Assembly: GCA_938074745.1 (NCBI GenBank)
Contig: CALJEJ010000067.1
Span: forward strand, 1 to 56,535
DNA: 56,535 bases
Direction of reading: 5' to 3'
Source of the DNA: an uncultured Endomicrobiia bacterium
GTDB lineage: Bacteria; Elusimicrobiota; Endomicrobiia; DTEH01
Shown: one piece after another, positions 14,002-56,535 of the stretch
Position numbering within the stretch: position 1 is the first letter of the stretch
How the letters are laid out: each line of letters starts with the position of its first letter
Notes under the pieces: generated by a model
What the model was told of the DNA's origin: nothing
The model's database searches: none
Seen by the model: only the letters and a program-made list of their open reading frames with translations
Program-made: the position numbers and the translations under genes

Positions 14002-14020
14002 TTTTTTGGGGAGGTTAAAA

Positions 14021-16481
<2,461 letters not shown>

Positions 16482-16517
16482 TTGCTCAAAATTTTAATAA
16501 GAAAAGAGGGTTAAACT

Positions 16518-17717: not shown

Positions 17718-17732
17718 AGAGGAACAGTTTAT

Positions 17733-17990
17733 ATGTATACCTTAATTTATATTATTCATGTAATTGTTTGTATATTACTAATTGGAATAATATTATTACA
17801 GTTAGGACAAATGGGCGGTCTTGGTGGAATTTTTGGTGGGGGCGGAATTGACCAAGTGTTTTCTTCTTCTGCAGGTTCTATGTTTTTAAAAAAAGTTACT
17901 TTAATAATTGCAATAATCTTTGTCCTAACAACAATCGCATTGACAATTTTTTCTTCAAGAACTGGGTTAGAATCCATTGTCGTAAGATAA
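17733..17990 (+). CDS. secG: Preprotein translocase subunit SecG
   Basis: Two TM helices with LLQ..G.GGLGGIFGGGG linker; typical location after glycolytic genes. Confidence 0.9.
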   Translation: MYTLIYIIHVIVCILLIGIILLQLGQMGGLGGIFGGGGIDQVFSSSAGSMFLKKVTLIIAIIFVLTTIALTIFSSRTGLESIVVR

Positions 17991-18039
17991 AGACACAACA
18001 CATACAGACTATTCTAAACAAAATGTATTTTTTTAGTGA

Positions 18040-19635
18040 GTGAAAATATTTTATTCAATTTATAACCAACTCCTCTATAAAAATCGTATTTTCTATACTT
18101 TCTTACTTTGGATTGTAATTGTATCTTTATCTTCTGCGAGTAAAAATCAACAAGTAAAGTTATTTTATAAAATAACTGTTATTGTTAATACAGAAAAAAT
18201 AATAGAAGTTCCAATATATAAAATTCATAAACAACAATATATCTTACTACAAGATTTAGCCAAAATATTTTATGCTACATTAACATATTATTCATCCTCA
18301 GGTTATATTAGTTTTAACTATCGCGGAGAAAAGTTATATTTTTACTTAGGTCGTAATTATTTTATTCACAGGAATAAAAGAATATATTTGTCTTCTGAAA
18401 TAATGTTTGTTAAAAACAGAACTTACATTCCTTTATCAATTTTCTTTTTACCAGAGTTTTCTTCCATATTAAATGCAGAAATACAGTTAAAAAAAGAACA
18501 AGATATTTTAATTGTAAATTTTGTAGATAATATATGGTTAGATTATTATGTAACTATAGATTATGCAAAGATACATTTTAGTTTTAAACAGTATGTGCAT
18601 TATGAATATTTTTATGATGACCGTGCAATAAATATTACTTTTTTCGGTGGCAGAATTAGTCCCAAAGAATATAATATTTTATCAGGAATTGTCTCAAAAA
18701 TATCTCTGAAACCTCACAACGGTAATGTAACAGCGAGAATTCATCTAACAGATTTAAATGTTAAAATTTCAAAACAGGAATTTAAAGAAAAATTAGTTTT
18801 AGAAATTGAAAAAACAAAAGAGTTGGTATATGCAAAAAATGAAGGTCTAACTGAAGTTTACACTTCTTCTAGTTACTTGGCAACTTCCAATTATGAAAAT
18901 GTTGTAGTTTCGTCTAATACAAATTTACCACAAGAAAATGTTTTTATAAATAAAAAACAAATTATAGTAATAGATCCTGGTCATGGCGGTGAAGATCCGG
19001 GAGCAATAGGTCCTAATGGAACTAAAGAAAAAGATATCAATTTAGCCATTGCAAAATATCTTAGAGATATGTTAATAAATGATGGATATGAAGTTTATCT
19101 AACTCGCGAAGAAGATATTTTTATTCCGTTAGTAGAACGGACTAAGTTTGCTAATGATAAAAATGCTGATATATTTATCTCAATTCACTGCAATGCTGCT
19201 GAAAAACCTAGGGGTGATGTAAGAGGGTTTGAAATATATTTTTTGTCAGAGACAGCAACAGACCCTGACGCTGTTGCTACAGAGAAATTAGAAAACGAAG
19301 TCGTAAAGTTTGAGAAAAAAACGCCTGAATTAGAAAAGTTACAAAAATTGTTATGGTCAATGGTAGTAAATGAATTTATGAACGAATCATCAAAATTGTG
19401 TAGTTTAATTACGAAAGAGGTCATTGAACGAACTCAATTTGTTAACCGTGGGGTAAAACAAGCAGGATTTTATGTTCTTCGTGGAGCACAAATGCCTGCA
19501 GTACTCGTAGAATGTGGATTTATCTCACATCCTGTAGAAGAAATTAAACTCAATAAAAAAGAAATTCAAATTGCCATTGCTAACGGAATATATGCAGGAA
19601 TTAAAAATTATGTCTCTCAAAAACAAAATAAATAA
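18040..19635 (+). CDS. N-acetylmuramoyl-L-alanine amidase (Amidase_3, AmiC-like with N-terminal accessory domains)
   Basis: VIDPGHGGEDPGA, EKDINL, FISIHCNA, GFEIY, AVLVECGFIS. Confidence 0.93.
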   Translation: MKIFYSIYNQLLYKNRIFYTFLLWIVIVSLSSASKNQQVKLFYKITVIVNTEKIIEVPIYKIHKQQYILLQDLAKIFYATLTYYSSSGYISFNYRGEKLYFYLGRNYFIHRNKRIYLSSEIMFVKNRTYIPLSIFFLPEFSSILNAEIQLKKEQDILIVNFVDNIWLDYYVTIDYAKIHFSFKQYVHYEYFYDDRAINITFFGGRISPKEYNILSGIVSKISLKPHNGNVTARIHLTDLNVKISKQEFKEKLVLEIEKTKELVYAKNEGLTEVYTSSSYLATSNYENVVVSSNTNLPQENVFINKKQIIVIDPGHGGEDPGAIGPNGTKEKDINLAIAKYLRDMLINDGYEVYLTREEDIFIPLVERTKFANDKNADIFISIHCNAAEKPRGDVRGFEIYFLSETATDPDAVATEKLENEVVKFEKKTPELEKLQKLLWSMVVNEFMNESSKLCSLITKEVIERTQFVNRGVKQAGFYVLRGAQMPAVLVECGFISHPVEEIKLNKKEIQIAIANGIYAGIKNYVSQKQNK

Positions 19636-20518
19636 AAATCCTATAGGAATTTTTGATTCAGGAATAGGTGGGGTCAATGTTGTTAAAGAAATCCATCGCA
19701 TTCTACCATATGAGAATATAGTTTATCTTGGTGATACAGCAAGAGTTCCTTATGGTACAAAGTCAAAAGAGACAATTATAAGATATTCTATAGAAAACAC
19801 AAATTTTTTGTTAAAATTTAAAATAAAGCTATTAGTTGTCGCTTGTAATACTTCCTCTTCTTATGCGTTACCAGTATTAAAAAAAATGTTGAACACAATT
19901 CCTGTAGTTGGAGTGATACTACCTGGAGCAATAAAGGCAATACAAGAAACTAAGAATAATAGAATAGGAGTTATAGGTACCCCAGCTACAATAAAAAGTG
20001 GAATATATAAAAAAACAATTATTTCACTAAGTAAAAAAAAGAAATCAGTTATATCTGTTGCTTGTCCTTTATTTGTTCCATTGATTGAAGAAGGATGGAT
20101 TGATAGATTGTACCAAGAAAAAGGGTATCATATCCAACATAAAAAACTGGATTATTATAGAATCATCAACCATGAAAATATACTTAGATACGTTGCAACA
20201 GAGTATTTATCCGTATTAAAACAGAAAAATGTTGATGTATTAGTTTTAGGGTGTACTCATTATCCTGCGATAAAAACAATTTTGAAAGAAGTTATGGGTC
20301 CACAAGTAACACTTGTTGATTCTGCTGAAGAAACTGCAAAGTTTGTTTATGAAACATTAAAAAGATATAATATGCTAAACATCCCTCACAATAAGAATGT
20401 TTTAGGTAAACTTAAATTCTATGTAACAGATGACCCACAAAAATTTAAGTTAATCTCCTCATGGTTAATTGGTAAAAAAATAAATTTTGTTAAAAAAGTT
20501 GTAGTAGAAAATGTATGA
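19610..20518 (+). CDS. murI: Glutamate racemase (ATG 19610 preferred)
   Basis: IGIFDSGIGG, DTARVPYGTKS, VACNTSS, LGCTHYP. Confidence 0.97.
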   Translation: MSLKNKINKNPIGIFDSGIGGVNVVKEIHRILPYENIVYLGDTARVPYGTKSKETIIRYSIENTNFLLKFKIKLLVVACNTSSSYALPVLKKMLNTIPVVGVILPGAIKAIQETKNNRIGVIGTPATIKSGIYKKTIISLSKKKKSVISVACPLFVPLIEEGWIDRLYQEKGYHIQHKKLDYYRIINHENILRYVATEYLSVLKQKNVDVLVLGCTHYPAIKTILKEVMGPQVTLVDSAEETAKFVYETLKRYNMLNIPHNKNVLGKLKFYVTDDPQKFKLISSWLIGKKINFVKKVVVENV

Positions 20519-43387: not shown

Positions 43388-45088
43388 ATGTTAGTATATT
43401 TAGAACTTAAAAATTACATTTTTATCAAAGAAATGAAATTAGAGTTTACTAATGGATTGAACGTTTTCACTGGTGAAACAGGTGCTGGAAAGTCTATTAT
43501 TGTAGATGCAATAAATTTAGTTTGTGGGGAACGAATTAATACTTCAATATTGGGTGAATTTGGAGATAAAACTGAAATTGTAGCAATGTTTGATTTTACA
43601 ACAAAAAAAACAAATGTTATAGATGAAATTAATGAGATATTAACAGTTTCAGGTGTTGAATTTGATACTAACGAACCACAACTTATTTTTAGGCGTGAGA
43701 TTGATTCACAAAATAAGTCAAAATATTATATAAACGACAAACTTGTAAGTTTATCTATACTAAAAAAAATTTCCGATATAATTCTTGATGTTCACGGACA
43801 GAATGAACATCAGAAATTGTTAAACCCAGCATATCATCTAAATGTGTTAGATGAATTTCTTGGTTTAAACGATATAATAACAAGTTATAGACAAAAATTT
43901 TATCTGTGGAAACAAAAAATAAAAGAATTAAATGAAATAAAAACTAATCTTGAGATACAAAAACAAAAACTTGATTTACTTAAATTTCAACTTCAAGAAA
44001 TAGAAAATGCTAAATTAACTATTGAAGATGAAAACTTAGAAGAAAAACTTAACAAAGCAAAAAATGCACAAAAAGTTCTTAACCTTTGTGCTGAAATAAA
44101 GTATAATCTTATAGGCGAAAATGGAATAAAATCAAAACTGAAGTCTATAGAAAAACAACTAAACAACCTCTCAACACTGTTGGATGTTAAAGAACCTATA
44201 TTTGACTTAAATAAGATATATGCTGAGATAGAAAATGTTGAGACAAAGATTGAAGAATATAAAAAAAATTTTTTTGAGTTTACTCCTGAAATTATAGATA
44301 ATTTAGTAGACCGCGTAGATTTAATAAAAAGGTTAAAACGTAAATATGGGACAAGTATAGAGGAAATAAAAAAGTATTATGAAAAAATAAAAAATGAACT
44401 TGCACATATTGACCTGGAAGAAGAAAAAGTTACCCAGTTAAATTCTGAAATTAATTTGTTAGAGACTGAACTTATAACATTGGCAAAGAGGTTGTCAAAT
44501 TTGCGTTTAGAAGGGAAAAAATCGCTTGAGGAAAAAATAAATCAAGAACTAAAAATTTTAGGTTTGCCCAAAGCATATTTTGAAGTAAAGATTACTTCTT
44601 CTGATAAAAAAATAGAAAACATTACAGAATCAGGATTTGATAAAATAGAATTTTTGATTTCTACAAACCCTGAGAAATCTCCTATGCCGTTGAAAGAAAT
44701 AGTTTCAGGTGGGGAACTCTCACGAATAATGTTGGCAATAAAAACTGTTCTTGGAGAGAAAGAAAACACACCTATAATGATATTTGATGAAATAGACAGT
44801 GGTGTAGGTGGTCCTATGGGATATGTAATAGGTAAAAAATTAAAACAACTTGCGAAGTCTAATAAACAAATATTTTGTGTTACACATTTACCACAAATTG
44901 CAGTGTTTTCAGATAGACATTTTTTTGTAACTAAAAATTTTATAAAGAACAAAACAGAAATTAAAGTAGAACTTTTAACTAAACAGCAGCGAATAAAAGA
45001 AATTGCACGTATGATAAGCACAGGCGAAGTTGACCAAACAGCACTCAATCATGCAAAAAAAATGTTACAAGAAACTGAAACAATGTAA
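43388..45088 (+). CDS. recN: DNA repair protein RecN
   Basis: TGETGAGKS, DVHGQNEHQ, SGGELSR, IFDEIDSG, THLPQIA. Confidence 0.97.
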   Translation: MLVYLELKNYIFIKEMKLEFTNGLNVFTGETGAGKSIIVDAINLVCGERINTSILGEFGDKTEIVAMFDFTTKKTNVIDEINEILTVSGVEFDTNEPQLIFRREIDSQNKSKYYINDKLVSLSILKKISDIILDVHGQNEHQKLLNPAYHLNVLDEFLGLNDIITSYRQKFYLWKQKIKELNEIKTNLEIQKQKLDLLKFQLQEIENAKLTIEDENLEEKLNKAKNAQKVLNLCAEIKYNLIGENGIKSKLKSIEKQLNNLSTLLDVKEPIFDLNKIYAEIENVETKIEEYKKNFFEFTPEIIDNLVDRVDLIKRLKRKYGTSIEEIKKYYEKIKNELAHIDLEEEKVTQLNSEINLLETELITLAKRLSNLRLEGKKSLEEKINQELKILGLPKAYFEVKITSSDKKIENITESGFDKIEFLISTNPEKSPMPLKEIVSGGELSRIMLAIKTVLGEKENTPIMIFDEIDSGVGGPMGYVIGKKLKQLAKSNKQIFCVTHLPQIAVFSDRHFFVTKNFIKNKTEIKVELLTKQQRIKEIARMISTGEVDQTALNHAKKMLQETETM

Positions 45089-45097
45089 TCTTATAAT

Positions 45098-45322
45098 ATG
45101 GTAGAGAAAAAAAGGTTCATAGTAAAAATAGATTATCAACATTGTAAAGGTTGTGAATTATGTGTTCAGTTTTGTCCACAAAAAATTTTAAAATTGACTG
45201 ATAAAGTTAATAATTTGGGGTATAAATTTTGTACAGTTGTAGATGAAGAAAAATGTAACGGTTGTGGAGTGTGTTATATAATGTGTCCCGAGTATATAAT
45301 AGAAATCTATAAAAACAAATGA
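45098..45322 (+). CDS. 2x[4Fe-4S] ferredoxin, delta subunit of 2-oxoacid:ferredoxin oxidoreductase
   Basis: CKGCELCVQFCP and CNGCGVCYIMCPE. Confidence 0.92.
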   Translation: MVEKKRFIVKIDYQHCKGCELCVQFCPQKILKLTDKVNNLGYKFCTVVDEEKCNGCGVCYIMCPEYIIEIYKNK

Positions 45323-46380
45323 AAAAACTTTTGCAAGGAAATATAGCATTTTGTGAAGGAGCAATTGATGGCGGTCTTGACGCATATTATGCTTACCCGA
45401 TAACTCCACAAAACGAAATTTCTGCTTATTTTGCAAAAGTTCTTCCACAAAAAAACAAAGTGTTCCTTCAAGCCGAATCTGAACTTGCTGCTATAAATAT
45501 GGTCTTTGGTACAGCACTTACCGGCAAAAGAGCTGTCACTTCGTCGTCATCTCCTGGAATTTCGTTAATGCAGGAAGGGATATCGTATCTATGTGGTTGT
45601 GAATTACCTTGTGTGATAGTAAATGTTATGCGAGGTGGGCCTGGATTGGGTAATATAAGCGGGTCACAACAAGATTATTTTCAATCAACTCGTGGTGGTG
45701 GTCATGGAGATTATTATACAATAGTTTTAGCACCATTCAGTGTTAAAGAAATCTACGAGTTTGCTAAAGAATCGTTTCTACTTGCAGAAAAATATAGAAA
45801 TCCTGTAATGATTATCTATGATGGTTACTTGGGTCAAATGATGGAAGTTGTTGATACAGAAACAGACGACGGTAAACTTAATGTCATAATTGATAAACCG
45901 ATTGATAAGAACTGGGTTTTAGACGGAGCAAAAGATAGACAACCAAGAAAAATACGCTCATTATTTATGGCTGAAGGCGAACTTGAACAACATAACTGGA
46001 AGTTGAAAAATAAATATGACAAAATAAAAGAAAAAGAAGTCCGAGTTAAATTTTATGAAACTCACGATGCAGAAATTATAATAGTAGCGTTTGGTATGTC
46101 AGCACGAGTTTCGTTAGAAGCAGTATATAAACTTCGACGAGAAGGTATTAAAATTGGGCTGATAAGACCGATAACTTTATGGCCATTTCCTTATTCTGAA
46201 ATATATGAAATTGCGAAGAAAGTAAAAAAATTTGTCGTAGTAGAAATGAATTTAGGTCAAATGATTGAAGATGTAAAACTTGCGGTAAATGGCATTGCAG
46301 AAGTATATTTTTATGGTAGGCCTGGAGGTGGTTTAGTAGAATCTGAAGAACTTATACAAAAAATAAAAAGTATAAAATAA
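45319..46380 (+). CDS. 2-oxoacid:ferredoxin oxidoreductase alpha-type subunit (Vor type)
   Basis: YPITPQ, QAESELAA, SSSSPGISL, RGGPGLGNI, VEMNLGQM. Confidence 0.92.
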   Translation: MKKLLQGNIAFCEGAIDGGLDAYYAYPITPQNEISAYFAKVLPQKNKVFLQAESELAAINMVFGTALTGKRAVTSSSSPGISLMQEGISYLCGCELPCVIVNVMRGGPGLGNISGSQQDYFQSTRGGGHGDYYTIVLAPFSVKEIYEFAKESFLLAEKYRNPVMIIYDGYLGQMMEVVDTETDDGKLNVIIDKPIDKNWVLDGAKDRQPRKIRSLFMAEGELEQHNWKLKNKYDKIKEKEVRVKFYETHDAEIIIVAFGMSARVSLEAVYKLRREGIKIGLIRPITLWPFPYSEIYEIAKKVKKFVVVEMNLGQMIEDVKLAVNGIAEVYFYGRPGGGLVESEELIQKIKSIK

Positions 46381-46382
46381 AT

Positions 46383-47120
46383 ATGCAACCAACAAAATTT
46401 GTAAAACCAAAAAGTTTGCAAGATAATTACCACAGTTATTGTCCAGGTTGTGGTCATGGTATTGTTCACAGGTTGATTGCTGAAGTTGTAGATGAATTAA
46501 ACATCCGAGAAAAAACAATAGGTGTTGCACCGGTAGGTTGTGCAGTGTTTGCATACGATTACTGGAACTTTGATGTTACCGAAGCTGCTCATGGTAGACC
46601 GCCAGCAGTTGCTACTGGTATAAAACGAGTTTTACCTGACAGAATAGTGTTTACCTACCAAGGCGATGGTGACCTTGCAGCAATTGGTACTGCGGAAATT
46701 GTTCATGCGGCTAACCGTGGGGAAAATATTTCCGTATTTTTTATAAACAATACTGTCTATGGGATGACTTCGGGACAAATGGCACCTACAACAATCGTCG
46801 GACAAAAAACTTTAACTACGCCATACGGTCGTGAGATTTCCCGTGACGGTTACCCGTTAAAAGTTTGTGAATTATTGTCTGTTCTTGACGGAGTACGGTT
46901 TGTTGCACGGGCTGCTTTAACTTCACCTAAAAATGTTTTGTTAGCAAAATTGTATATAAGAAAGTCGTTTTTAACACAAATTGAAAATAAAGGATTTTCT
47001 ATAGTAGAGATACTTTCAATGTGTCCTACAGGTGTAAATATGACACCTATTGAAACTTTAAAATGGGTAGATACAGAGTTAGTAAAATATTTCCCTTTAG
47101 GGATACTAAAAGATGTATAA
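46383..47120 (+). CDS. 2-oxoacid:ferredoxin oxidoreductase beta-type (TPP-binding) subunit
   Basis: YCPGCGHG, VGCA, HGR, QGDGD...NN.VYGMTSGQ, CP. Confidence 0.93.
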   Translation: MQPTKFVKPKSLQDNYHSYCPGCGHGIVHRLIAEVVDELNIREKTIGVAPVGCAVFAYDYWNFDVTEAAHGRPPAVATGIKRVLPDRIVFTYQGDGDLAAIGTAEIVHAANRGENISVFFINNTVYGMTSGQMAPTTIVGQKTLTTPYGREISRDGYPLKVCELLSVLDGVRFVARAALTSPKNVLLAKLYIRKSFLTQIENKGFSIVEILSMCPTGVNMTPIETLKWVDTELVKYFPLGILKDV

Positions 47121-47664
47121 CGAAATTTTTATAGCGGGCAGTGGTGGTCAAGGTGTACTATCGTTAGGTAGGATACTTGTAATGTCTGCAGTAGAAGAAA
47201 ATAAATATGTCACATATTATCCTTCCTACGGTGCAGAGGTTCGTGGTGGAACAGCAAATTGTATGGTAAAAATTTCTGATGAACCAATTTATTCTCCTGT
47301 TATAGAACATCCAACGGAGATGGTTATAATGAATACACCGTCATATTTGAAATTTATAAAAAAATTTCTACCACAAAAAATACTTTTTTTAAATACATCT
47401 CTTGTAGAAGAAAATGAAGAAATAACTCGGTTAATATTAACCCAAATACCACAACTGGAAATAATAAGAGTTAATGCAACAGAAATTGCAAACAAAATAG
47501 GAAACATTTTGAGTTCCAACATGGTAATGTTAGGTAGTATAGTTCAGAAACTTAAAATAATTTCTGTTGAAACTGTAAAAACAGTATTAGGGAAAATTTT
47601 TGATGAAAAAATTCTCGAACTTAACCTTCAAGCATTTATTAAAGGGATGGAGAGTTTGAAATGA
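47113..47664 (+). CDS. 2-oxoacid:ferredoxin oxidoreductase gamma subunit
   Basis: AGSGGQG, PSYGAEVRGGTA, NMVMLG. Confidence 0.93.
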   Translation: MYNEIFIAGSGGQGVLSLGRILVMSAVEENKYVTYYPSYGAEVRGGTANCMVKISDEPIYSPVIEHPTEMVIMNTPSYLKFIKKFLPQKILFLNTSLVEENEEITRLILTQIPQLEIIRVNATEIANKIGNILSSNMVMLGSIVQKLKIISVETVKTVLGKIFDEKILELNLQAFIKGMESLK

Positions 47665-48155
47665 TTAAAAAAAGTATAAAGATAGAACGTGCCAAAGTAA
47701 TAGATGTGCCCGAGATATATAAACTTATAAACAAGTTTGCAAAAAAAAATCTCATGTTACCCCGAGTAATGAACGATATATATGAACGTATATTTGAATT
47801 TTTTGTATTAAAAGAAAGAATAGGGGAAACACAAAAAGTAATTGGTTGTGTGACATTACATTTCACTTGGACTGGGAAAGACAACATAGTTCTTGCTGAG
47901 ATACGTTCTCTTGCTGTAGATGAAGAGTATCAAGGTAAAGGTTATGGTAAACTTCTTGTCCAAAAATGTCATAAAGAGGCTAAAAAGATAGGTGTGAAAA
48001 AAATTTTTGCATTAACTTTTGTACCTGACTTTTTTGTAAAACTTGGGTATAAAATTGTCCCAAGAGAAACTTTACCACATAAAGTGTGGACTGAATGTAT
48101 CAATTGTCCATTTTTTATGAGTTGTAAGGAAACTCCAGTAATAAAAGATTTGTAG
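47661..48155 (+). CDS. GNAT N-acetyltransferase, short ArgA-like amino-acid acetyltransferase
   Basis: MLPR...IYE.I.EF, AEIRSLAV....GKGYG, FALT..PDFF, LP.KVW.EC. Confidence 0.8.
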   Translation: MIKKSIKIERAKVIDVPEIYKLINKFAKKNLMLPRVMNDIYERIFEFFVLKERIGETQKVIGCVTLHFTWTGKDNIVLAEIRSLAVDEEYQGKGYGKLLVQKCHKEAKKIGVKKIFALTFVPDFFVKLGYKIVPRETLPHKVWTECINCPFFMSCKETPVIKDL

Positions 48156-48165
48156 TAAAAACAAA

Positions 48166-50211
48166 GTGAAATTGCACAACCTACAAAAATGTTTAAACAC
48201 TATCTCACAAATATTTAGTACTTATCTACAAAATTTCCTACCTTATTATGAACCTAGGTTTCAACAACTTTCAATGGCTCAAGAAATTTTTTCTTCTATG
48301 GTAGGACAAAGAAAGATTATAGCAGAAGCTCCTACAGGAGTAGGAAAAAGTTTAGGATATCTTATTGCTGCTATAGTATATCAACAAGAAGTTAATGTTG
48401 ATACAAGAATAGTAGTTTCTACATACACTAAAACATTACAACAACAGTTGATACATAAAGATCTTCCTGTGGTAGATAAAATTGTTCAACAATTGTATAA
48501 AAGAGAACTCAACTATGGCTGTTTTTATGGCAGTGAAAATTATATTTGTTTAAACAAGTTTAATGAATACATAACTGCTACATTATCTCCGATAGAAAAA
48601 ACAGTTATTGCCCAAATTGAAAAATGGTTACAGCAAACACAAACCGGATGTATAGAAGAAATAGACATAAATTTAGACATTTGGCAGGAAATAAATCGTG
48701 AACCTGATTTATGTAGAGGTAAACATTGCAAATTTTATTCTGAATGTTTGTATTATAAATGTTTAAATAATATAAAGACTTTAGATATAATAGTAGTAAA
48801 TCATCATTTATTTTTTGCACATATAGTTTCTTTAGGCAAACTTATACCGTTAAAAAATAAGTATTGTGACGAAATTATAATTTTTGACGAAGCACATAAT
48901 ATAGAAGATGTAGCCTTACAATGGTTAGGTAATAGTGTATCAAATACACAAATAAAATATTTATTAAAACGAATTTTTAACCCTAAGAAACATCACGGGT
49001 TAGTATATAAACTTAATTCTGTATCAGAAAATTGGAAAGAAAATGTAATTTCCTGTGTAAACAATTTATATGCATGTTGTGGCCAATTTTTTTCAGAGTT
49101 AGCTTCTAAATTTCCTGACAAAAAAGAAGTTCGTGTAGTTCAACCAAATATTGTAGAAGATGTGTTAACTCCTGCATTAAGCCAACTTTACAGCGTGTTA
49201 AAATCGGGGATTAACATGGCTAAAACTGAAGAAGAAATGAGTAAGATAAAAACATATGCGAACCGTGTAGTAAATTTCATTGGTATTATAAATGCTTGGT
49301 TGAAATGTGAAGGGAATGATTATATCTATTGGATAGAAAAAGAAAAATTGAAAAATACTTACCGTATCACATTAAAAATTACACCGTTAGATATTGCTCA
49401 GGAGATGCAAGAAAAAGTTTATTCTGTTTATGATAAAATAGTATTTACTTCTGCTACTCTTGCTATAAAAGATAATTTTGAATTTTTTAAAAAATCTGTT
49501 GGTTTGATTCCTAAAATTATAGACCATTCTTCTATAGAAGAAATTATTTTACCAACACCATTTGATTATGAATCTAATGTAATTATATATCTTCCAGAAT
49601 CAGTCCCAGACCCAAAAAACGAAGAACAACAATATAAAATTGTTTGTAGTGAGATTATAAAAGAAATGATAGAATTAACTTATGGCAATACTTTTGTATT
49701 GTTTACCAGTTTTGATTTAATGAATTGGGTATATGAAAAAATCAATTCTAATGGTGCTGTAAAATATAAAATTTTCATTCAGGACGAAAGTAAAACCAAG
49801 TTGTTAAAAAAATTTCATTCTACAGAAAACTCAGTACTATTTGGCGTAGACACTTTTTGGCAAGGGGTAGATATTCCAGGAGAGAAACTTGTTTCTATTA
49901 TTATTCCAAGGTTGCCATTTGATGTTCCTGAACATCCTGTTGTAGAAGCAAAGGTTGAGAAAATAAGAAGTGAAGGTGGGGATCCGTTTCGTGAATATCT
50001 TTTACCTAATGCTATAATGAAACTTAAACAAGGGTTTGGCAGGTTAATAAGGAAAAACACTGATTGGGGTATTGTTACCATAATTGACCCGAGGATAAAA
50101 ATTCGTTGGTATGGCAGGTATTTCATTAACTCGTTACCAAAATGTCAGATAACAACAGATTTTGATGTTGTAAAAAAATTTTTTATGAAGAAAAAAGGTA
50201 AGATATTGTAA
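48166..50211 (+). CDS. dinG: DinG/YoaA-family Fe-S DNA helicase
   Basis: EAPTGVGKS, four Fe-S Cys (YICL..CRGKHC..C), VVNHHL, DEAH, TSATL, FWQGVDIPG, KQGFGRLIR. Confidence 0.93.
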   Translation: MKLHNLQKCLNTISQIFSTYLQNFLPYYEPRFQQLSMAQEIFSSMVGQRKIIAEAPTGVGKSLGYLIAAIVYQQEVNVDTRIVVSTYTKTLQQQLIHKDLPVVDKIVQQLYKRELNYGCFYGSENYICLNKFNEYITATLSPIEKTVIAQIEKWLQQTQTGCIEEIDINLDIWQEINREPDLCRGKHCKFYSECLYYKCLNNIKTLDIIVVNHHLFFAHIVSLGKLIPLKNKYCDEIIIFDEAHNIEDVALQWLGNSVSNTQIKYLLKRIFNPKKHHGLVYKLNSVSENWKENVISCVNNLYACCGQFFSELASKFPDKKEVRVVQPNIVEDVLTPALSQLYSVLKSGINMAKTEEEMSKIKTYANRVVNFIGIINAWLKCEGNDYIYWIEKEKLKNTYRITLKITPLDIAQEMQEKVYSVYDKIVFTSATLAIKDNFEFFKKSVGLIPKIIDHSSIEEIILPTPFDYESNVIIYLPESVPDPKNEEQQYKIVCSEIIKEMIELTYGNTFVLFTSFDLMNWVYEKINSNGAVKYKIFIQDESKTKLLKKFHSTENSVLFGVDTFWQGVDIPGEKLVSIIIPRLPFDVPEHPVVEAKVEKIRSEGGDPFREYLLPNAIMKLKQGFGRLIRKNTDWGIVTIIDPRIKIRWYGRYFINSLPKCQITTDFDVVKKFFMKKKGKIL

Positions 50212-51084
50212 ATGAAATTAGGTGTACATTGTTCTATAAGACACGGATATAAAAATGCATTATATGAAGCAAAACAGTTACATTGTGATACATTTCAGAT
50301 GTTTACTCATTCACCTCGTGTATGGAAATTTAAATTACCTTCAGAACAGGAAATTTTAGAATTTGTATATGAAAGAGAAAAACTGGGTATAAAACCGTTG
50401 ATAATCCATGTTGCTTATTTACCCAACCCTGCAAGTTCGGATAAGAAAGTTTATGAACAGTCTAAAACTTTGTTACTTACAGAATTTTTTCTTGCAGAAA
50501 AATGTAACGCTGATTATATAATAATTCATCCTGGGAGTTACTCTTCTGGCGCAACACTTCAAGAAGGTATTTCGTTGGTTGTTAAAAGTATAGATTATTG
50601 TTTTGAACAATTGTTTAATTTTAACCCTAACACCAAATTAATGTTATTATTAGAAAATGTTTGTAGTAAGACAAGGAAAATAGGGAAAAATTTCTTTGAA
50701 TTAGCAAGAATTATTGAATTAAGTAAGTTCAGCGAAAATATCGGGGTGTGTATAGATACTGCACATATTCATTCTTCAGGTTATGATTTATCTAGGGAAT
50801 ATGGGTTAGAAAGAATGTTAATGGATTTAAAATATTACATTGGGATAGAAAAGTTGAAAGTTGTTCATTTGAACGATACGAAAACAGTTTCTGGTAGTTG
50901 TATTGACCGTCACGAACATATTGGTAAAGGATATATTGGTATAGAAGGTTTTAGAAGAATAGTTAACCATCCAGTGATCTCAAAGTTGCCAGGAATATTA
51001 GAAACACCGAAAGAAACTTCATTTGGCAAGATTTCACAAAAGGATAAACAGAATCTTTCAATCATAAAAAATTTATTGAAATAA
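50212..51084 (+). CDS. nfo: Endonuclease IV (AP endonuclease 2)
   Basis: GVHCSI, HPG, LEN, CIDTAH, HLND.K, DRHEHIG.G.IG, ILETP. Confidence 0.95.
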   Translation: MKLGVHCSIRHGYKNALYEAKQLHCDTFQMFTHSPRVWKFKLPSEQEILEFVYEREKLGIKPLIIHVAYLPNPASSDKKVYEQSKTLLLTEFFLAEKCNADYIIIHPGSYSSGATLQEGISLVVKSIDYCFEQLFNFNPNTKLMLLLENVCSKTRKIGKNFFELARIIELSKFSENIGVCIDTAHIHSSGYDLSREYGLERMLMDLKYYIGIEKLKVVHLNDTKTVSGSCIDRHEHIGKGYIGIEGFRRIVNHPVISKLPGILETPKETSFGKISQKDKQNLSIIKNLLK

Positions 51085-51089
51085 TTGTT

Positions 51090-51117
51090 TTTAAAATTTA
51101 AAATTTTGTATTATAAT
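51090..51117 (+). promoter_or_regulatory. Possible sigma70 promoter ahead of HD-GYP gene
   Basis: Perfect TATAAT at 51112-51117 with TTTAAA 16 nt upstream; only 4 nt before the ATG. Confidence 0.3.
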
Positions 51118-51121
51118 TTTT

Positions 51122-52216
51122 ATGAGATTAGCGGATATTTTTAAAAAAATTCAACAGGAAAGTTTAGAAAAATCGCATGAAGAAAAAGTTATAGAAGATA
51201 AAACTCAACAAACAAAAACACCCACACCTTCTATAGTAGAAATAGAACGGAAAAAAGAACAAGAAGTTTTACTTATAGAAAAAATTTATGCTGACGCAAT
51301 TTCATACACAAGAACCCTATTTTCTTCATTAGCCCACAAAAAAAACAATATTTCTTTAGAAAACATTTTTGAGGTAATTAAAGGGATAACAACTACAATC
51401 CAACAGTATCCTGATAAGTTATTACTTTATTGTACTTATTCTACACCTGATTCATATATTTATGCTCATAGTGTGAACGTTGCAATATTAACTTCATTAA
51501 TAGGACAAATAAAAAAATTCCCGCAAGAGGAATTGTTTCAACTTACTTTATGTGGTCTGTTACACGATATAGGTATGCTTCGTGTGTTAGATATTGTGAA
51601 CAAACCACAAAAACTTTCTTATGAAGAATACGAGAAGATAAAGAAACATCCGCTATGGACAAAAGAAGAACTTGTTTATTTATCTCTTCCTACAGAATTA
51701 AGAAATCTTTTGAGTGAAATTATTCCCCAGGCCCATGAACGGTTAGACGGTTCAGGTTATCCCTCAGGATTAACTTCACAAGAGATCCATCCTTGGGCAA
51801 AGATAATAAGTATTGCTGATATTTACGAAGCGATGTCTCACCCACGACCATACAGAGATAGGTTCTTAGCACATACTGCAGTAGTAGAACTTATTCGTAT
51901 GGCACAAGGGTTGGTTGATAGTGAAATAACTAAATTATTCGTAGATAGAATATCATTATTCCCTGTTGGCAGTTATGTTAAACTTAGCAGCGGAGATATT
52001 GCAAAAGTTATACAAACGAATATAGGGTTTCCGGTCAGACCTAAGGTTAAGGTTATATTAACTGCAGAAAAAACTGTCCCTGTAACTAATACAGAAATAA
52101 ATCTTGCTAAGGAAAGTAAGATTTATGTCTTAGAACCTCTGGACGAAACTAAACTTGTTGTCCCAGATAAGAGATTGTTACTTCAACTTAAGGCACAACG
52201 TTGGTGGGTAAAGTAA
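51122..52216 (+). CDS. HD-GYP domain protein (putative cyclic di-nucleotide phosphodiesterase)
   Basis: HSVNV, LHDIG, IKKHP, HERLDGSGYP, IADIYEAM..PRPYR, FPVGSYVKL. Confidence 0.92.
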   Translation: MRLADIFKKIQQESLEKSHEEKVIEDKTQQTKTPTPSIVEIERKKEQEVLLIEKIYADAISYTRTLFSSLAHKKNNISLENIFEVIKGITTTIQQYPDKLLLYCTYSTPDSYIYAHSVNVAILTSLIGQIKKFPQEELFQLTLCGLLHDIGMLRVLDIVNKPQKLSYEEYEKIKKHPLWTKEELVYLSLPTELRNLLSEIIPQAHERLDGSGYPSGLTSQEIHPWAKIISIADIYEAMSHPRPYRDRFLAHTAVVELIRMAQGLVDSEITKLFVDRISLFPVGSYVKLSSGDIAKVIQTNIGFPVRPKVKVILTAEKTVPVTNTEINLAKESKIYVLEPLDETKLVVPDKRLLLQLKAQRWWVK

Positions 52217-53070
52217 AAAAGTTGGCTAATATATATTTTTGTTGTATCCCGTCGGAAGTTTATATCAATATATACCCTCCATCACAAAAAATTTCTTTTT
52301 ACATCACGAAAAATTTTAATATATTTTGTATGAATGGGTCTAAAACAATCTCGGCTAAAATAGTTGTCAATCTAAAATTGTATGAAAAAAGTTGCAAGGA
52401 TAAATATCTTTTTGAAAACGGGCAAAAAAGTAAAGAATATACAGAATTTATTAGAGAAGATATTTATTTTAAATACAATTTTGTAAAAAATTTTGCTGAA
52501 GCCAAAATAAACAAAAATGTTTATTCAATTGATTCGGTGTTAAGAATACTATATAGTATTCTGTTGGCAAAAAATTCAGGAATATTATTTCACGCTGCAG
52601 GTATAACAATTGACAACTATGGTTATTTATTTGTTGGTCCTACAGGTTCAGGAAAGTCTACTACTATAAAATGGTTTAGAAAAAATTTTAAAAATTATAA
52701 AAGTTATATTGAACTAAGTGACGAACTTGTTCCTGTGAAGGTTAAAGGTGGGAAAATTTATACTTGGCAAAGTCTGTTTTGGGGTGAACTAAAGAATAAA
52801 ACCGTTTTTCAACAAGGGGATATTTCGATGTTCACATTAAAAAAAATATATTTTTTGTCAGGATTTAATGAAAAAACACAATTAGTTACACCAGTTGGTA
52901 TAAAAGAAACAGTTGAACTGTTATTAAAAAACTTATTTTGGGTGGTAAACTCGCAAATGTTTGCTAACGATATACTTAAAACAGTTACAAATATTGCAAT
53001 GACTGTTCCCGCGTTTAAATTATATCCACCACTTCACAATGATTATAATTTTGTCGAAATATTAAAATGA
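52201..53070 (+). CDS. HPr-kinase-like P-loop protein (RiPP-associated kinase type); start uncertain
   Basis: ILFHAAGI....GYLFVGPTGSGKSTT ... LSDE ... FWGE, the motif order of HprK-related kinases beside PqqD genes. Confidence 0.75.
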   Translation: MVGKVKKLANIYFCCIPSEVYINIYPPSQKISFYITKNFNIFCMNGSKTISAKIVVNLKLYEKSCKDKYLFENGQKSKEYTEFIREDIYFKYNFVKNFAEAKINKNVYSIDSVLRILYSILLAKNSGILFHAAGITIDNYGYLFVGPTGSGKSTTIKWFRKNFKNYKSYIELSDELVPVKVKGGKIYTWQSLFWGELKNKTVFQQGDISMFTLKKIYFLSGFNEKTQLVTPVGIKETVELLLKNLFWVVNSQMFANDILKTVTNIAMTVPAFKLYPPLHNDYNFVEILK

Positions 53071-53330
53071 AATATAAAATTAAACCTAACCTTGCATTTA
53101 GAAAAATTTCTGACGAATATTATATTGTAGATAGCCGAAATTCTATGTTACACAAACTTAACTCTGTAGGAAGTTTAATTTGGGAAGTTTTAAAAAAAGG
53201 TGCTACAGTAAAAGAAATTGTTGAGTTGGTGTATAAAGAATATGAAGTAGAGATAGAAACTTTGACTAAAGATGTAGAAGAGTTTATCACAGAACTAAAA
53301 AATAAATCTTTAATTGAAGAGTATGAATGA
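53067..53330 (+). CDS. PqqD-family RiPP recognition element (stand-alone RRE)
   Basis: 87 aa; LNSVGSLIWEVL...T..EIV.....EYEV......DV.EFI.EL....LI pattern. Confidence 0.92.
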   Translation: MKYKIKPNLAFRKISDEYYIVDSRNSMLHKLNSVGSLIWEVLKKGATVKEIVELVYKEYEVEIETLTKDVEEFITELKNKSLIEEYE

Positions 53331-54354
53331 AGGTTTTAAAAATTTATCAGACGAACTTTTCTGGCAAAGTTATAACAACAGAGTTCCGTTATATTCGTTG
53401 TTAGAAGTTACTTCAAGATGTAATTTTGATTGTATTCATTGTTATATTCCTCAAGAAGTCCGTAGAAAAAACGATGAACTTTCAACAAAAGAAATTATGT
53501 CCTGTTTAGAAGAAATTAAAACTTTAGGCGGGTTGTATACAGTTTTTACAGGTGGTGAACCGTTGTTAAGAGAAGATATTTTTACTCTTCTTGAGTTTGC
53601 TAAAAAATTAAATTTTGTAGTTATACTTTTTACTAACGGAAGTTTGATAAATAAAGAAACAGTTTCTAAAATAATTTCTTGTGGTGTAGATAAAGTTGAA
53701 ATAAGTTTATATGGTAATAAACATTTTCATGAAAAATTTGTCAGAAGGAAAGATGTGTTTTCACAAATTGTTTCTGGGATAAAAATGTTGAAACATAACA
53801 ATATAGATGTTTGTATAAAATCCGTGTTAACAAAATACAACTGGAACCAAAAAAAGTTTTTAGAAAATTTTGCTTATAGTTTAGGTGTGAGATACAAGTT
53901 TGACATAATCTGTACACCTAGAAATAACGGTGATATAATACCAACAACTTTTATCGTTGAAGAAAAAAAGTTGGTCAAACTACTAAAACAATACAATTTA
54001 ACACAGGTGGATATAAAAAAAGATTTTACCACACACATTTTGTGTTCTGCTGGGAGGAACATTGTCGCAGTTTCATCCCGTGGTGAAGTGTATCCTTGTA
54101 TTCAATTTCCATATTTTTTAGGGTCAATAAAGAAAGAAAAATTTGTAAAAATATGGCGAAGAAGTTTTTCTATAGTAGAAAAATTAGAGGAAACAAAACA
54201 ATATCAACAATGTTTAAATTGTGATATTCTTCAATACTGTCGTCGTTGTCCGGGAATAAGTTTTATACAAACACGGACATTATACGGTTGTGATACAGTT
54301 GCAAAACTGTTGGCTTGCGTAACAAGAAAAACTGTTGAAAAAACAGCCGTGTGA
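53323..54354 (+). CDS. Radical SAM/SPASM peptide maturase (ATG 53323 preferred over TTG 53314)
   Basis: CNFDCIHC, TGGEPLL, TNG; SPASM CSAG..VSSRGEVYPC and CLNCDILQYCRRCPG...YGC. Confidence 0.93.
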   Translation: MNEGFKNLSDELFWQSYNNRVPLYSLLEVTSRCNFDCIHCYIPQEVRRKNDELSTKEIMSCLEEIKTLGGLYTVFTGGEPLLREDIFTLLEFAKKLNFVVILFTNGSLINKETVSKIISCGVDKVEISLYGNKHFHEKFVRRKDVFSQIVSGIKMLKHNNIDVCIKSVLTKYNWNQKKFLENFAYSLGVRYKFDIICTPRNNGDIIPTTFIVEEKKLVKLLKQYNLTQVDIKKDFTTHILCSAGRNIVAVSSRGEVYPCIQFPYFLGSIKKEKFVKIWRRSFSIVEKLEETKQYQQCLNCDILQYCRRCPGISFIQTRTLYGCDTVAKLLACVTRKTVEKTAV

Positions 54355-54369
54355 TAAATATCACATTTG

Positions 54370-54399
54370 TTGACTGGTTAAGTCCAAATTTTGTATTTA
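54370..54399 (+). promoter_or_regulatory. Weak promoter candidate upstream of precursor peptide gene
   Basis: TTGACT (54370-54375), 18 nt, TATTTA (54394-54399), 7 nt before ATG 54407. Confidence 0.25.
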
Positions 54400-54406
54400 T
54401 TTTACT

Positions 54407-54562
54407 ATGAAAAAAGAAGATAAAAAAAAGAAAAAGAAGTACCAGAAACCTACAGTTGTTTCAGAAAAAATTTTTGAACAAGCAGCGCTTGCCTGCGGGA
54501 AATGTATTTCTGGCAATCCTGTGTTTAAAGGCGGCTGTGTATATGTCCCCAGGTTGTCATAA
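54407..54562 (+). CDS. Putative RiPP precursor peptide, 51 aa; not in ORF track
   Basis: Own translation MKKEDKKKKKKYQKPTVVSEKIFEQAALACGKCISGNPVFKGGCVYVPRLS*; fills the gap between rSAM and peptidase; YxxP leader motif; Cys-rich C-terminal part. Confidence 0.88.
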   Translation: MKKEDKKKKKKYQKPTVVSEKIFEQAALACGKCISGNPVFKGGCVYVPRLS

Positions 54563-54617
54563 TAACAGTTCTATTTTTTTATAGATTAAGTTTCTGGGGA
54601 TAGGTCATTTAGAGTTT

Positions 54618-54959
54618 ATGAAAATCGTGGTGGTAAAACTTGCCGGTGGTTGTATGCGACCATTGTTAAGAAATGGTCAAACAGTGTTAATTATTCCTCC
54701 ACGCAAAAAGTTGTATCTCGGCGATTTGGTTTTATACAAAATTGCTGAACAGTTGTTCCTTCACAGAGTGGTTAAACTTTCCTCACAAAGTGTAGTTGTT
54801 AATGACGACTGTGGTATTACTTCCTATATTACAGTTCCATTAAAAGATGTGATAGGTATATGTCCAACTATTTTATCCGGTTTTTTAGGATACATATATC
54901 ACATTTTTATAAGAACAATCTATACAACTTTCAGATGGATAAAAAAATTGTTGCTATAG
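54618..54959 (+). CDS. S24/S26-fold peptidase-like protein with Cys at the nucleophile position
   Basis: GGCMRPLL..GQTV, LGDLVLY, LHRVV, VIG matches the GxSMxP / GD / HR pattern with S->C. Confidence 0.78.
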   Translation: MKIVVVKLAGGCMRPLLRNGQTVLIIPPRKKLYLGDLVLYKIAEQLFLHRVVKLSSQSVVVNDDCGITSYITVPLKDVIGICPTILSGFLGYIYHIFIRTIYTTFRWIKKLLL

Positions 54960-54984
54960 TTAATTTGCAAAAAGTATAGTTTTT

Positions 54985-55821
54985 ATGGAACAAAAATTGT
55001 CGTATCTATCCTATTGGGGACTTAAAGAATTACCGTTTTCTACAACACCTGATGTAAGATATTTTTATTTTTCAAAAGAACATGAAGAAGCGTTCGTCAG
55101 ACTTAAATTTGTGATAGAACACAAAAAACCTTTGTGTATGATAACAGGCGAGTATGGCAGTGGCAAGACACTTCTTTGCAATTTCCTTATCTCCAAACTT
55201 TCTTTGAACAATTACCAGTTTGTATATTTAGGCAACCCGTTTGTCCCTCAGGAAGAACTAGTACACAATTTAGTTTTGTTTTTAACCCGAGTAGGTGGGG
55301 GGGGTATAGAGAAACTTCCAACTAAATATACAGAGTTGGTGCAGTTGTTTGTTGAAATAGTAAATCGTAACTTCCAAATTGGTAAACATACAGTGATATT
55401 TTTTGACGAAGCACACCTTGTTGAAGATATAAAAGTTTTTGAACAACTCCGAGTTTTGTTAAACAGTGCAGGTCAAAATACGTCTTCTTTAAGTATAATT
55501 TTGTTAGGACAAACAGAGTTAAGAGAAAAGATTGCTTCTTTAGGACAGTTTAAGTCAAGAATTACATATCATTACCATATAAAAAATCTTGATAAAGAAG
55601 AGGTGGCAGAATATATAAAACACAGGTTACTTGTAGCAGGCCATCCTACGGGCGAGTTGTTTTGCAAGTTCGCAGTGGAAGAAATTTATAATCTAACTTT
55701 GGGTTTGCCAAGGACAATAAATAATATATGTGATGTAAGTTTAATGCTTGGTATGGCTAAAGGTGTGGAGAAAATTCATAAAGAAATAGTGGTGGAAGCG
55801 AAAGAAGAAGTGATGTTGTGA
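54985..55821 (+). CDS. ExeA/GspA/MshM-family AAA ATPase
   Basis: Y..YWGLKELPFSTTPD..Y.Y....H.EA, ITGEYGSGKTLL, FDEAH, LLGQTEL, T.GLPRTIN.ICD. Confidence 0.9.
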   Translation: MEQKLSYLSYWGLKELPFSTTPDVRYFYFSKEHEEAFVRLKFVIEHKKPLCMITGEYGSGKTLLCNFLISKLSLNNYQFVYLGNPFVPQEELVHNLVLFLTRVGGGGIEKLPTKYTELVQLFVEIVNRNFQIGKHTVIFFDEAHLVEDIKVFEQLRVLLNSAGQNTSSLSIILLGQTELREKIASLGQFKSRITYHYHIKNLDKEEVAEYIKHRLLVAGHPTGELFCKFAVEEIYNLTLGLPRTINNICDVSLMLGMAKGVEKIHKEIVVEAKEEVML

Positions 55822-55825
55822 AAAT

Positions 55826-55906
55826 ATAGTTTCAAAAGTTTCAGAAGTTTCAATAGTTTCAAAAGTTTCAGGAGTTTCAATAGTTTCAGAAGTTACAAAA
55901 GTTTCA
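55826..55906 (+). repeat. Tandem array of nine 9-bp units, consensus (A/G)(A/T/G)AGTTTCA, with loose 27-bp superperiod
   Basis: atagtttca aaagtttca gaagtttca atagtttca aaagtttca ggagtttca atagtttca gaagttaca aaagtttca, read directly. Confidence 0.97.
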
Positions 55907-55920
55907 AGGGGGAAAGGAAG

Positions 55921-56451
55921 GTGAAGATTGAGAAGTTTGAGGATATAATTGCTTGGCAAAAAACGAGAGAACTTGTTAAAGAAATTTATAGGATAACGAA
56001 GAATGAAGAATTTTCAAAAGATTATTCTTTAAAAGACCAGATACAACGTGCAAGTGTTTCTATTATGTCAAACATAGCAGAGGGGTATGAACGTGGGACG
56101 AAAGAAGAGTTGATACAATTTTTATACATTGCTCGTGGCTCGTGTGGTGAAGTAAGAAGCCAGTTATATATTGCTTATGACCTAAATTATATAAGTTTGC
56201 AAGAGTTTCAAAAGTTGCAAAAGTTAGCGATAGAGGTTTCAAGGTTAATTTATCATTTTATTGAATACTTAAAAGGAGCAAGGATTAGAGGACAGAAGTT
56301 TAGAAAACCTAAAGTGAAAAGTTTCAGAGAGGAAATAGAAGAATTATTAAAAACTTATACAACTTCTGAAACTCCTGAAACTATTGAAACTTCTGAAACT
56401 CCTGAAACTAATCAAATTAACGAGAACAATGACGGAACTAAGCAACTTTGA
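55921..56451 (+). CDS. Four-helix-bundle protein (Avd / 23S-IVS-protein-like) with repeat-derived C-terminal tail
   Basis: FEDIIAWQK, F.KDYSLKDQIQRASVSIMSNIAEGYER, F..IARGSCGEVRSQL; purine-rich SD AGGGGGAAAGGAAG before GTG. Confidence 0.93.
   Translation: MKIEKFEDIIAWQKTRELVKEIYRITKNEEFSKDYSLKDQIQRASVSIMSNIAEGYERGTKEELIQFLYIARGSCGEVRSQLYIAYDLNYISLQEFQKLQKLAIEVSRLIYHFIEYLKGARIRGQKFRKPKVKSFREEIEELLKTYTTSETPETIETSETPETNQINENNDGTKQL
56361..56411 (-). repeat. Inverted copy of the 9-bp array (five full units plus a partial) inside the four-helix-bundle ORF
   Basis: aacttc tgaaactcc tgaaactat tgaaacttc tgaaactcc tgaaactaa is the reverse complement of the NNAGTTTCA units; encodes TSETPETIETSETPET. 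Confidence 0.95.
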
Positions 56452-56455
56452 ATTG

Positions 56456-56524
56456 AAAGTTACAAAAGTTACAAAAGTTTCAAAAGTTTCAATAGTTACA
56501 ATAGTTTCAATAGTTTCAAAAGTT
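56456..56524 (+). repeat. Downstream direct array of seven 9-bp units plus a partial
   Basis: aaagttaca aaagttaca aaagtttca aaagtttca atagttaca atagtttca atagtttca aaagtt. Confidence 0.97.
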
Positions 56525-56535
56525 AGGGCACTGTT

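Follow-up and report, generated by a model that had tools for sequence, protein, structure and literature searches.

Five tightly packed genes at positions 52201-54959 of contig CALJEJ010000067.1 (GenBank assembly GCA_938074745.1; 56,535 nucleotides analysed at full length, hereafter the window), which comes from an uncultured Endomicrobiia bacterium of the phylum Elusimicrobiota, form a real and conserved pathway, far beyond what chance would produce. They are likely to constitute a maturation cassette for a ribosomally made, post-translationally modified peptide (RiPP) of the lineage that includes the lasso-peptide kinases and the linear polyphosphorylated peptide (LPP) pathway, with a radical S-adenosylmethionine (SAM)/SPASM enzyme added, which acts by the steps proposed below and has a role at the cell surface. 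The genes are read from the + strand and encode, in succession, a P-loop protein of the HprK/PEPCK fold, similar to ScmC and predicted to be a kinase (52201-53070, 289 amino acids from a TTG start); a discrete PqqD-family RiPP recognition element, or RRE (53067-53330, 87 amino acids; PF05402, E 3e-17); a radical SAM/SPASM peptide maturase (53323-54354; PF04055 and PF13186); a precursor peptide of 51 amino acids, MKKEDKKKKKKYQKPTVVSEKIFEQAALACGKCISGNPVFKGGCVYVPRLS (54407-54562), conserved in 62 loci; and a soluble Sec11/SipW-type (S26B) peptidase, predicted to remove the leader (54618-54959, 113 amino acids, with Cys12, His49 and Asp63/Asp64). The predicted leader of the precursor (residues 1-25, 54407-54481) carries Y12-x-x-P15-x-V17 and F23-E24-Q25, and is followed, at a putative boundary, by the predicted core AALACGKCISGNPVFKGGCVYVPRLS (residues 26-51, 54482-54559), with Cys30, Cys33, Cys44 and the C-terminal Ser51. 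The genes overlap or lie almost end to end. The kinase-like open reading frame (ORF) shares 16 nt with the stop-bearing end of the upstream HD-GYP gene, and 4 nt (ATGA) with the PqqD frame. The maturase ORF opens at TTG 53314 (346 amino acids); ATG 53323 would give 343 amino acids, as in a database protein of 99% identity, and is for this reason the likelier start. The initial annotation had described here five tightly packed, co-oriented genes for an HprK-like protein, a PqqD, a radical SAM/SPASM enzyme, a Cys-containing peptide and a protein of the S24/S26 fold, and all of these frames were found in place, with every part belonging to the family named for it.

The peptide is the product of a real gene. 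With the peptide as the sole query, a scan in which each species was represented by one genome has revealed 62 loci, nearly all of them in Elusimicrobiota, together with two in Planctomycetota and one in a metagenome-assembled genome labelled Ignavibacteria; the search for a conserved precursor in homologous loci was one of the tests that had been named beforehand, and the precursor was kept in these loci of other species. The residues P15, E20, F23, E24, A26, L28, C30, C44 and S51 are invariant across 44 diverse members, and C33 is invariant inside Elusimicrobiota, all copies from which hold C30, C33, C44 and the terminal Ser; the latter residue was found in 65 of the 65 distinct peptides from the loci. 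The leader motifs YxxPx[ILVM] and FE[TQ] are likewise conserved, with T or Q at position 25. The conserved block is kept via synonymous codon changes across GC contents of 0.28-0.57. The identity to the Endomicrobiia relatives is 71-88% for the peptide, 40-51% for the maturase and 25-37% for the kinase-like protein, and, judged by these values, the peptide ranks first in conservation among the products of the cassette. A profile search among 1.84 billion representative proteins returned 573 clusters, with the terminal Ser in 144 of the top 150, and every source name seen for the matches was "hypothetical protein". The peptide matches no NCBIfam or Pfam family, and its profile gave no match in the PDB. 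A Sec or lipoprotein signal was considered for the peptide and rejected, as the leader is Lys-rich and without a hydrophobic core.

The window proteins were then mapped on the six-frame ORFs of the 62 loci (L numbers designate loci throughout). All five genes are present in 47 loci, or in 48 with the counting of a profile match in L026, and the majority of the remaining loci are truncated by the end of a contig, so that the co-occurrence across genomes, on which the initial annotation had staked its proposal, is borne out. The order is ScmC-like, PqqD, radical SAM, peptide, S24-like in Endomicrobiia and ScmC-like, PqqD, peptide, S24-like, radical SAM in Elusimicrobiales, with a third order, peptide, S24-like, ScmC-like, PqqD, radical SAM, in L067 and L068, which belong to another lineage of high GC and have the cassette beside rpoC. 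Five genes that remain neighbours through such changes of order make up a functional module. Four loci found via the maturase show the succession HD_5, ScmC-like, PqqD, radical SAM, small ORF, S24-like, AAA_22 and sometimes an IVP gene; where the peptide gene had not been called, the peptide occupies the gap. The database homologues bear the names Endomicrobiia, Elusimicrobiota or Omnitrophica, and the window sequence is present in a marine metagenome.

The best NCBIfam match of the PqqD protein is lasso_PqqD_Bac (45 bits, under the cut-off of 80), and among solved structures the closest to it are TbiB1 (E 2.7e-10), LppB (9X8Z, E 1.7e-8), PbaB1 and TfuB1. Discrete lasso RREs, according to reviews, bind the YxxPxL leader motif, and a motif of this type is also bound by LppB (PMC13381572). 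The P-loop protein taken alone gives a weak match to ScmC (TIGR04249, E 4e-4); among 32 members of its family, HprK-related kinase A was matched by 28, ScmC by 24 and HprK-related kinase B by 20, all below cut-off. The residues R115, H131, G146, G151, K152, T154, D174 and E175 are invariant in this family. The AlphaFold2 (AF2) model of the protein (predicted local distance difference test, pLDDT, 88.8) has phosphoenolpyruvate (PEP) carboxykinases as its best folds (E 1e-8), a fold common to HprK. The HprK-like lasso kinases have been described in reviews to phosphorylate the conserved C-terminal Ser of the precursor via an H-K-D-D motif; in the P-loop family the first three positions of this PadeK-type motif are the invariant H131, K152 and D174, and the fourth is an invariant Glu (E175), not Asp.

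The maturase contains the Radical_SAM (PF04055, E 3e-23) and SPASM (PF13186, E 1e-8) domains. Across 57 homologues, the CX3CX2C cysteines (C33, C37 and C40, counted from ATG 53323) vary little or not at all and six SPASM cysteines (C241, C259, C297, C300, C306 and C309) are invariant, the seventh canonical one not being conserved. The enzyme falls below every named NCBIfam cut-off (AhbD 139/500, MftC 111/265, PqqE 96/381, GeoRSP 94/400, ScmE 86/400), and its membership in the GeoRSP, pyrroloquinoline quinone (PQQ), mycofactocin or SCM families was rejected, with all scores far under cut-off. Its nearest solved structures are SkfB, the best match (E 2.5e-11), and PqqE. The PQQ and mycofactocin precursors are marked by Glu/Tyr or a C-terminal Val-Tyr, and the window peptide has Ser at its C-terminus.

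The 113-residue peptidase alone gives weak matches to archaeal signal peptidase I (TIGR02228, E 8e-6) and Peptidase_S24 (E 0.02), and the profile of its family matches human SEC11A/C (E 2e-6), in an alignment that brings the nucleophile Ser and the His into register. The AF2 model (pLDDT 95) has the LexA/signal-peptidase fold, with a root-mean-square deviation of 2.5 A over 83 columns. Cys12 (54651-54653) occupies the position of the nucleophile, and His49-Arg50 and Asp63-Asp64 are kept. The motif follows the clade, being G-G-C-M-R-P in all Endomicrobiia-type copies and G-S-S-M-x-P in Elusimicrobiales; as read from these alignments, the Endomicrobiia peptidase is a clade-wide natural Ser-to-Cys change of nucleophile on the Sec11/SipW fold. 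The N-terminal anchor which, together with a catalytic domain outside the cell, distinguishes type I signal peptidases is absent from the 113-residue protein: in the model, beta strands begin from residue 4, and the sole long helix is C-terminal (88-112). The relatives of 190 amino acids in L067 and L071 are likewise devoid of an N-terminal hydrophobic segment. On the model, the catalytic domain is probably cytoplasmic, and the lack of an anchor argues for a cytoplasmic substrate, i.e., the precursor.

Among characterised systems, the one nearest to the cassette is the pathway to LPP in Bacillota (LppA/K/B/S/D/N), described by Popov et al. (Nat Commun 2026, PMC13381572). Its precursors carry YxxPxVLxHQxIxFETxxS; LppS, a SipW-type peptidase with the residues S29/H68/D93, is the LppB-dependent leader peptidase that cuts after T-1 and needs F-3, E-2 and T-1; and LppK polyphosphorylates Ser+3 (PMC13381572). 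A radical SAM enzyme is nowhere mentioned in the same paper, which describes LPP as confined to Bacillota (PMC13381572). An HprK-like kinase, a stand-alone RRE resembling those of lasso clusters and a leader peptidase (predicted in the cassette) of the SipW/Sec11 type, with a layout of the Ser/His/Asp kind, are common to both systems, both precursors have a leader of the form YxxPx[VIL]...FE[T], and both are situated near cell-surface loci, namely capsule genes for LPP and a giant surface protein for the cassette. However, a radical SAM/SPASM enzyme is found in the cassette only, and the core NTP (nucleoside triphosphate) transferase and the MsbA-like exporter of LPP were not found in 43388-56535 nor among the called genes of L001-L004. 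The cassette core is also short, with three Cys and a C-terminal Ser, the spacing from P to FET in its leader is two residues shorter, the nucleophile of its peptidase is Cys (Ser in the sister clade) instead of the Ser of LppS, and the host belongs to Elusimicrobiota. The leader would most likely be cut after F23-E24-Q25, giving a core of 26 residues, because the homologous LppS cuts after F-E-T, with which F23-E24-Q25 aligns. This homology makes doubtful the loss of residues 1-29, predicted earlier for this peptide, although the site A27-L28-A29 (cut after 54493) agrees with the -3/-1 rule for signal peptidases and may be the one used. The searches of literature on the gene combination, on RiPPs of Elusimicrobia and in two papers on giant genes found no description of the cassette. 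The initial statement that no characterised product with such an architecture is known applies to the radical SAM-bearing form only, the peptidase-RRE-kinase trio having been characterised in 2026 as LPP (PMC13381572).

The lasso peptides tailored by kinases (paeninodin PadeK, ThcoK, SyanK, pseudomycoidin PsmK) resemble the cassette in the PqqD RRE, probably of the B1 type, the leader, YxxPxL there and YxxPxV in the window peptide, the HprK-like kinase and the precursor with a conserved terminal Ser, which is phosphorylated in the lasso systems, and differ from it in that the cassette has an S26-type leader peptidase and a radical SAM/SPASM enzyme. No lasso cyclase or B2 cysteine protease turned up between 43388 and the end of the window, i.e., 9 kb upstream and 1.6 kb downstream of the cassette, or in the homologous loci, and a lasso peptide cluster was rejected for this reason. 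The absence of a cyclase had been stated from the outset, along with the view that lasso-type accessory parts appear repurposed around a radical SAM enzyme, and this view is supported by the PqqD nearest to lasso B1 and LppB, the YxxPx[ILV] leader and the invariant terminal Ser. The SynChlorMet (SCM) cassette of TIGRFAMs/NCBIfam (ScmC, ScmD, ScmE, ScmF) similarly combines a ScmC-type P-loop protein, a PqqD homologue and a radical SAM/SPASM enzyme, and weak matches were obtained to TIGR04249, TIGR04248 and TIGR04250/51, with precomputed Pfam PF27840 (ScmC) annotations on the relatives. However, the scores are far from the cut-offs (ScmC 19.8/125, ScmD 21.2/100, ScmE 86.1/400, ScmF 69.6/400), and the cassette of the window, with one radical SAM enzyme rather than two, also includes an S26 peptidase, and its precursor is identified. 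With the sactipeptide and ranthipeptide pathways (SkfB, CteB, PapB, SCIFF) the cassette shares a radical SAM/SPASM enzyme, an RRE and a Cys-bearing core, but its RRE is discrete and not fused to the maturase, its precursor family, kinase and peptidase are unrelated, and no cut-off is reached.

In the proposed course of maturation, the PqqD RRE would bind the leader of the 51-residue precursor through Y12-x-x-P15-x-V and would present the precursor to three enzymes. The radical SAM/SPASM enzyme would cross-link the core at C30, C33 and C44, most likely with thioether bridges; the HprK-fold kinase would phosphorylate Ser51, possibly more than once; and the peptidase, with its putative Cys12-His49-Asp triad, would remove the leader, most likely after F23-E24-Q25 and alternatively after A27-L28-A29. 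As for the role, same-strand ORFs of at least 1000 amino acids, starting within 4 kb, were counted in the loci with at least 5 kb downstream. Such a giant ORF lies 3' of the cassette in 32 of 39 loci, and in 33 of 37 within Elusimicrobiota with the counting of L063, in which the frame (941 amino acids) runs off the contig end. Three of the four loci found via the maturase contain called giant genes of 8832-9440 amino acids, and in L001 the ORF leaves the contig end. The giant proteins have Sec signal peptides and immunoglobulin (Ig)/FN3 repeats, with N-terminal domains of three unrelated types, one of which is found downstream of the cassette in both classes. The fixed place of the cassette 5' of the giant gene and, in Endomicrobiia, the neighbourhood of HD-GYP and ExeA-like ATPase genes suggest, therefore, that the product probably acts at the cell surface or in adhesion, a strain-specific antibiotic being unlikely. 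A tentative extension, which we consider rather improbable as it stands, is that the cross-linked phosphopeptide may be an obligate partner of the giant adhesin-like proteins, serving them as ligand, anchor or small subunit or as a signal for export or regulation, in a pairing that would be ancient in Elusimicrobiota; if so, this RiPP would differ from diffusible antibiotics in that its role, structural or regulatory, is bound to a single giant protein.

Several points weigh against the maturation proposal. The type of cross-link, the phosphorylation and the cut site are all inferred. The best full-length matches of the maturase are MftC and PqqE, the makers of C-C bonds, and not the sactipeptide or ranthipeptide synthases, and the position +3, where LppK phosphorylates Ser, is an invariant Leu in the cassette precursor. 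There is no radical SAM gene in L024 and L030, both of Elusimicrobiota, and L031 is reduced to the genes of the peptide and the peptidase plus the giant gene, with no kinase-like, PqqD or radical SAM gene in the 10 kb upstream. In the two Planctomycetota loci (L042, L043), the terminal Ser is retained with no ScmC- or S24-like gene within 7-10 kb, and the Ser may, therefore, serve another step. No exporter is present in the cassette, and the window stops short of any giant gene. The cassette had been called apparently self-contained at first, which suits the five-gene set itself and does not extend to the export or to the gene of the giant secreted protein, nearly always found downstream in Elusimicrobiota.

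The modified peptide might, instead of being a free product, be a dedicated partner of the downstream giant surface protein (ligand, small subunit, anchor, secretion or regulatory signal), with the peptidase possibly serving the giant protein as well, as SipW serves TasA. This reading is unlikely in our estimate, although the giant ORF follows the cassette in both classes despite the differing other flanking genes, the reduced L031 keeps precisely the peptide, the peptidase and the giant gene, the conservation of the peptide is unusual for a RiPP core, and the peptide of L069 adjoins a 1128-residue Big_5/dockerin protein with the enzymes not nearby. The same five genes exist without a giant gene in L067 and L068; the peptidase, having no N-terminal signal or membrane anchor, probably keeps its catalytic domain in the cytoplasm, whereas the giant protein begins with a Sec signal peptide of the ordinary kind; the N-terminal domains of the giant proteins fall into three unrelated types; and synteny alone does not show an interaction. 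A second reading, held here to be doubtful to the same degree, supposes an LPP-like pathway to a linear phosphopeptide, in which the radical SAM enzyme makes a change other than a Cys thioether, e.g., a C-C cross-link, epimerisation or Cys oxidation. It accords with the match of the peptidase-RRE-kinase trio and of the leader motif to LPP, with the MftC (111 bits) and PqqE (96 bits) matches of the full-length maturase and with the conservation of six of the seven canonical SPASM cysteines, but three Cys are invariant in all Elusimicrobiota cores and two across the superfamily, which is the usual signature of Cys cross-links, and the nearest solved enzyme, SkfB, is a thioether synthase. It is very improbable that the peptide gives rise to a small redox cofactor or metal-binding molecule, like PqqA or MftA, and is conserved because the enzymes of the cell need it, for, although its gene is single-copy and highly conserved phylum-wide, the radical SAM enzyme and discrete PqqD resemble the PqqE/PqqD and MftC/MftB pairs and the core holds a CxxC motif and a third Cys, the neighbourhood has no conserved gene for a dependent dehydrogenase or for further tailoring of a cofactor, the C-terminus is Ser and not Tyr with NCBIfam scores far under the PQQ and mycofactocin cut-offs, and the kinase and SipW-type peptidase indicate the LPP/lasso lineage.

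As a RiPP maturation pathway, the cassette would add a radical SAM branch to the SipW-peptidase/RRE/HprK-kinase RiPPs, which were thought to be confined to Bacillota, and would extend them to Elusimicrobiota and other uncultured phyla. Its precursors form a defined superfamily with 573 representative clusters, each of them annotated as hypothetical, and it would offer a natural Cys-for-Ser variant of a leader protease of the signal-peptidase fold. If the link to the giant gene is functional, the cassette would also be a small, expressible handle on the handling and regulation of giant surface proteins.

Outside the five-gene core, an HD-GYP-type (HD_5) phosphodiesterase gene (51122-52216, + strand; PF13487, E 2e-22) carrying the HERLDGSGYP motif precedes the cassette, and 5' of it there are housekeeping genes for a RecN-like protein, 2-oxoacid:ferredoxin oxidoreductase subunits, a GNAT protein, a DinG-like helicase and a protein of the AP-endonuclease fold. 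The HD-GYP homologues are located directly 5' of the cassette in the Endomicrobiia-type loci L001-L010, L012 and L013, and in L031 the corresponding protein is a GAF-HD_5-PilZ fusion; the stretch 6342-20075 of the latter locus encodes this fusion, an M28 peptidase with a type IX secretion system (T9SS) sorting domain, the peptide, an S26-like peptidase and the giant ORF. Downstream, the cassette is followed by an AAA_22 ATPase gene (54985-55821, + strand; PF13401, E 5e-17), the product of which is akin to the XrtA/PEP-CTERM-associated ATPase (TIGR03015, 157 bits versus a cut-off of 324), and ExeA-like AAA_22 ATPases occur 3' of the cassette in the Endomicrobiia loci L001-L003, L006-L010 and L012. 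The ATPase gene contains a poly-G tract, G8 at 55293-55300, with tracts of G5-G9 at the same codon position (~97-104) in L001, L002, L003, L007, L009 and L010, in genomes of about 30% GC. The gene is broken into two frames at the tract in L003, L007 and L010, and one base is missing at 55297 in a related-strain contig (run X2). By its sequence, this tract looks like a site of slipped-strand phase variation just 5' of the giant gene, with homopolymer assembly errors also possible. The scan for promoters and terminators found no terminator-like site between 50900 and the window end, and promoter-like sites were at the level of shuffled sequence.

Between the cassette and the expected giant gene the window contains an inserted gene for a four-helix-bundle protein of the 23S rRNA IVP family (55921-56451, + strand; PF05635, E 1e-38), which stands at the same place in L002, L003 and L010. 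The 9-bp tandem arrays of AGTTTCAAA and its variants, at 55826-55907 and 56456-56525, flank the IVP gene, and an inverted 9-bp array at 56361-56409 encodes the TSETPETIETSETPET tail of its product. The window ends 84 nt past the IVP gene, inside such an array, which is crossed by an ORF open at the 3' end, like the first codons of the giant ORF in L002; the contigs of the source marine metagenome gave only fragments of 4-5x coverage, none reaching past 56535, and an exact look-up of the window ATPase returned no contig. In L002, like repeats in the arrays 6219-6330 and 8077-8190 code for extra residues at the N-terminus of the peptidase, IETIDTIDTFGTFDTF, and for residues 1-30 of the giant ORF, SIKSIKSIKSVKS.

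In Elusimicrobiales, the cassette has type IV pilin-like genes on one side and the gene of an Rrf2 regulator on the other. The extended synteny, observed in L055 (2068-12115) and 24-35 other loci of this order, begins with genes for a glycosyltransferase of family 2 (GT2), a 264-residue protein, 917- and 164-residue proteins with type IV pilin N-methylation motifs and a 418-residue protein, and ends with the cassette, the Rrf2 regulator and the giant ORF. In L039, also of Elusimicrobiota, a GHMP-family kinase gene (8347-9210) stands at the usual place of the ScmC-like gene, with no giant ORF after it, and may be a non-homologous replacement or simply a housekeeping kinase. In Planctomycetota, four to six tandem precursor genes are followed by the radical SAM and PqqD genes (L042 7027-11201, L043 9245-12124), the precursors having the same leader and terminal Ser and long, variable cores with two Cys. 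A DVU0150-like protein and a TauE exporter come after these genes in L042, where a Hanks kinase fused to an FGE-sulfatase-like domain adjoins on the opposite strand. Outside Elusimicrobiota, the peptide or cassette adjoins secreted beta-propeller proteins of the PQQ_2 type (L069 5336-10951, L071 2111-3202), and in L067 the adjoining gene (6124-8004) encodes a 626-residue protein with a signal peptide and no Pfam match.

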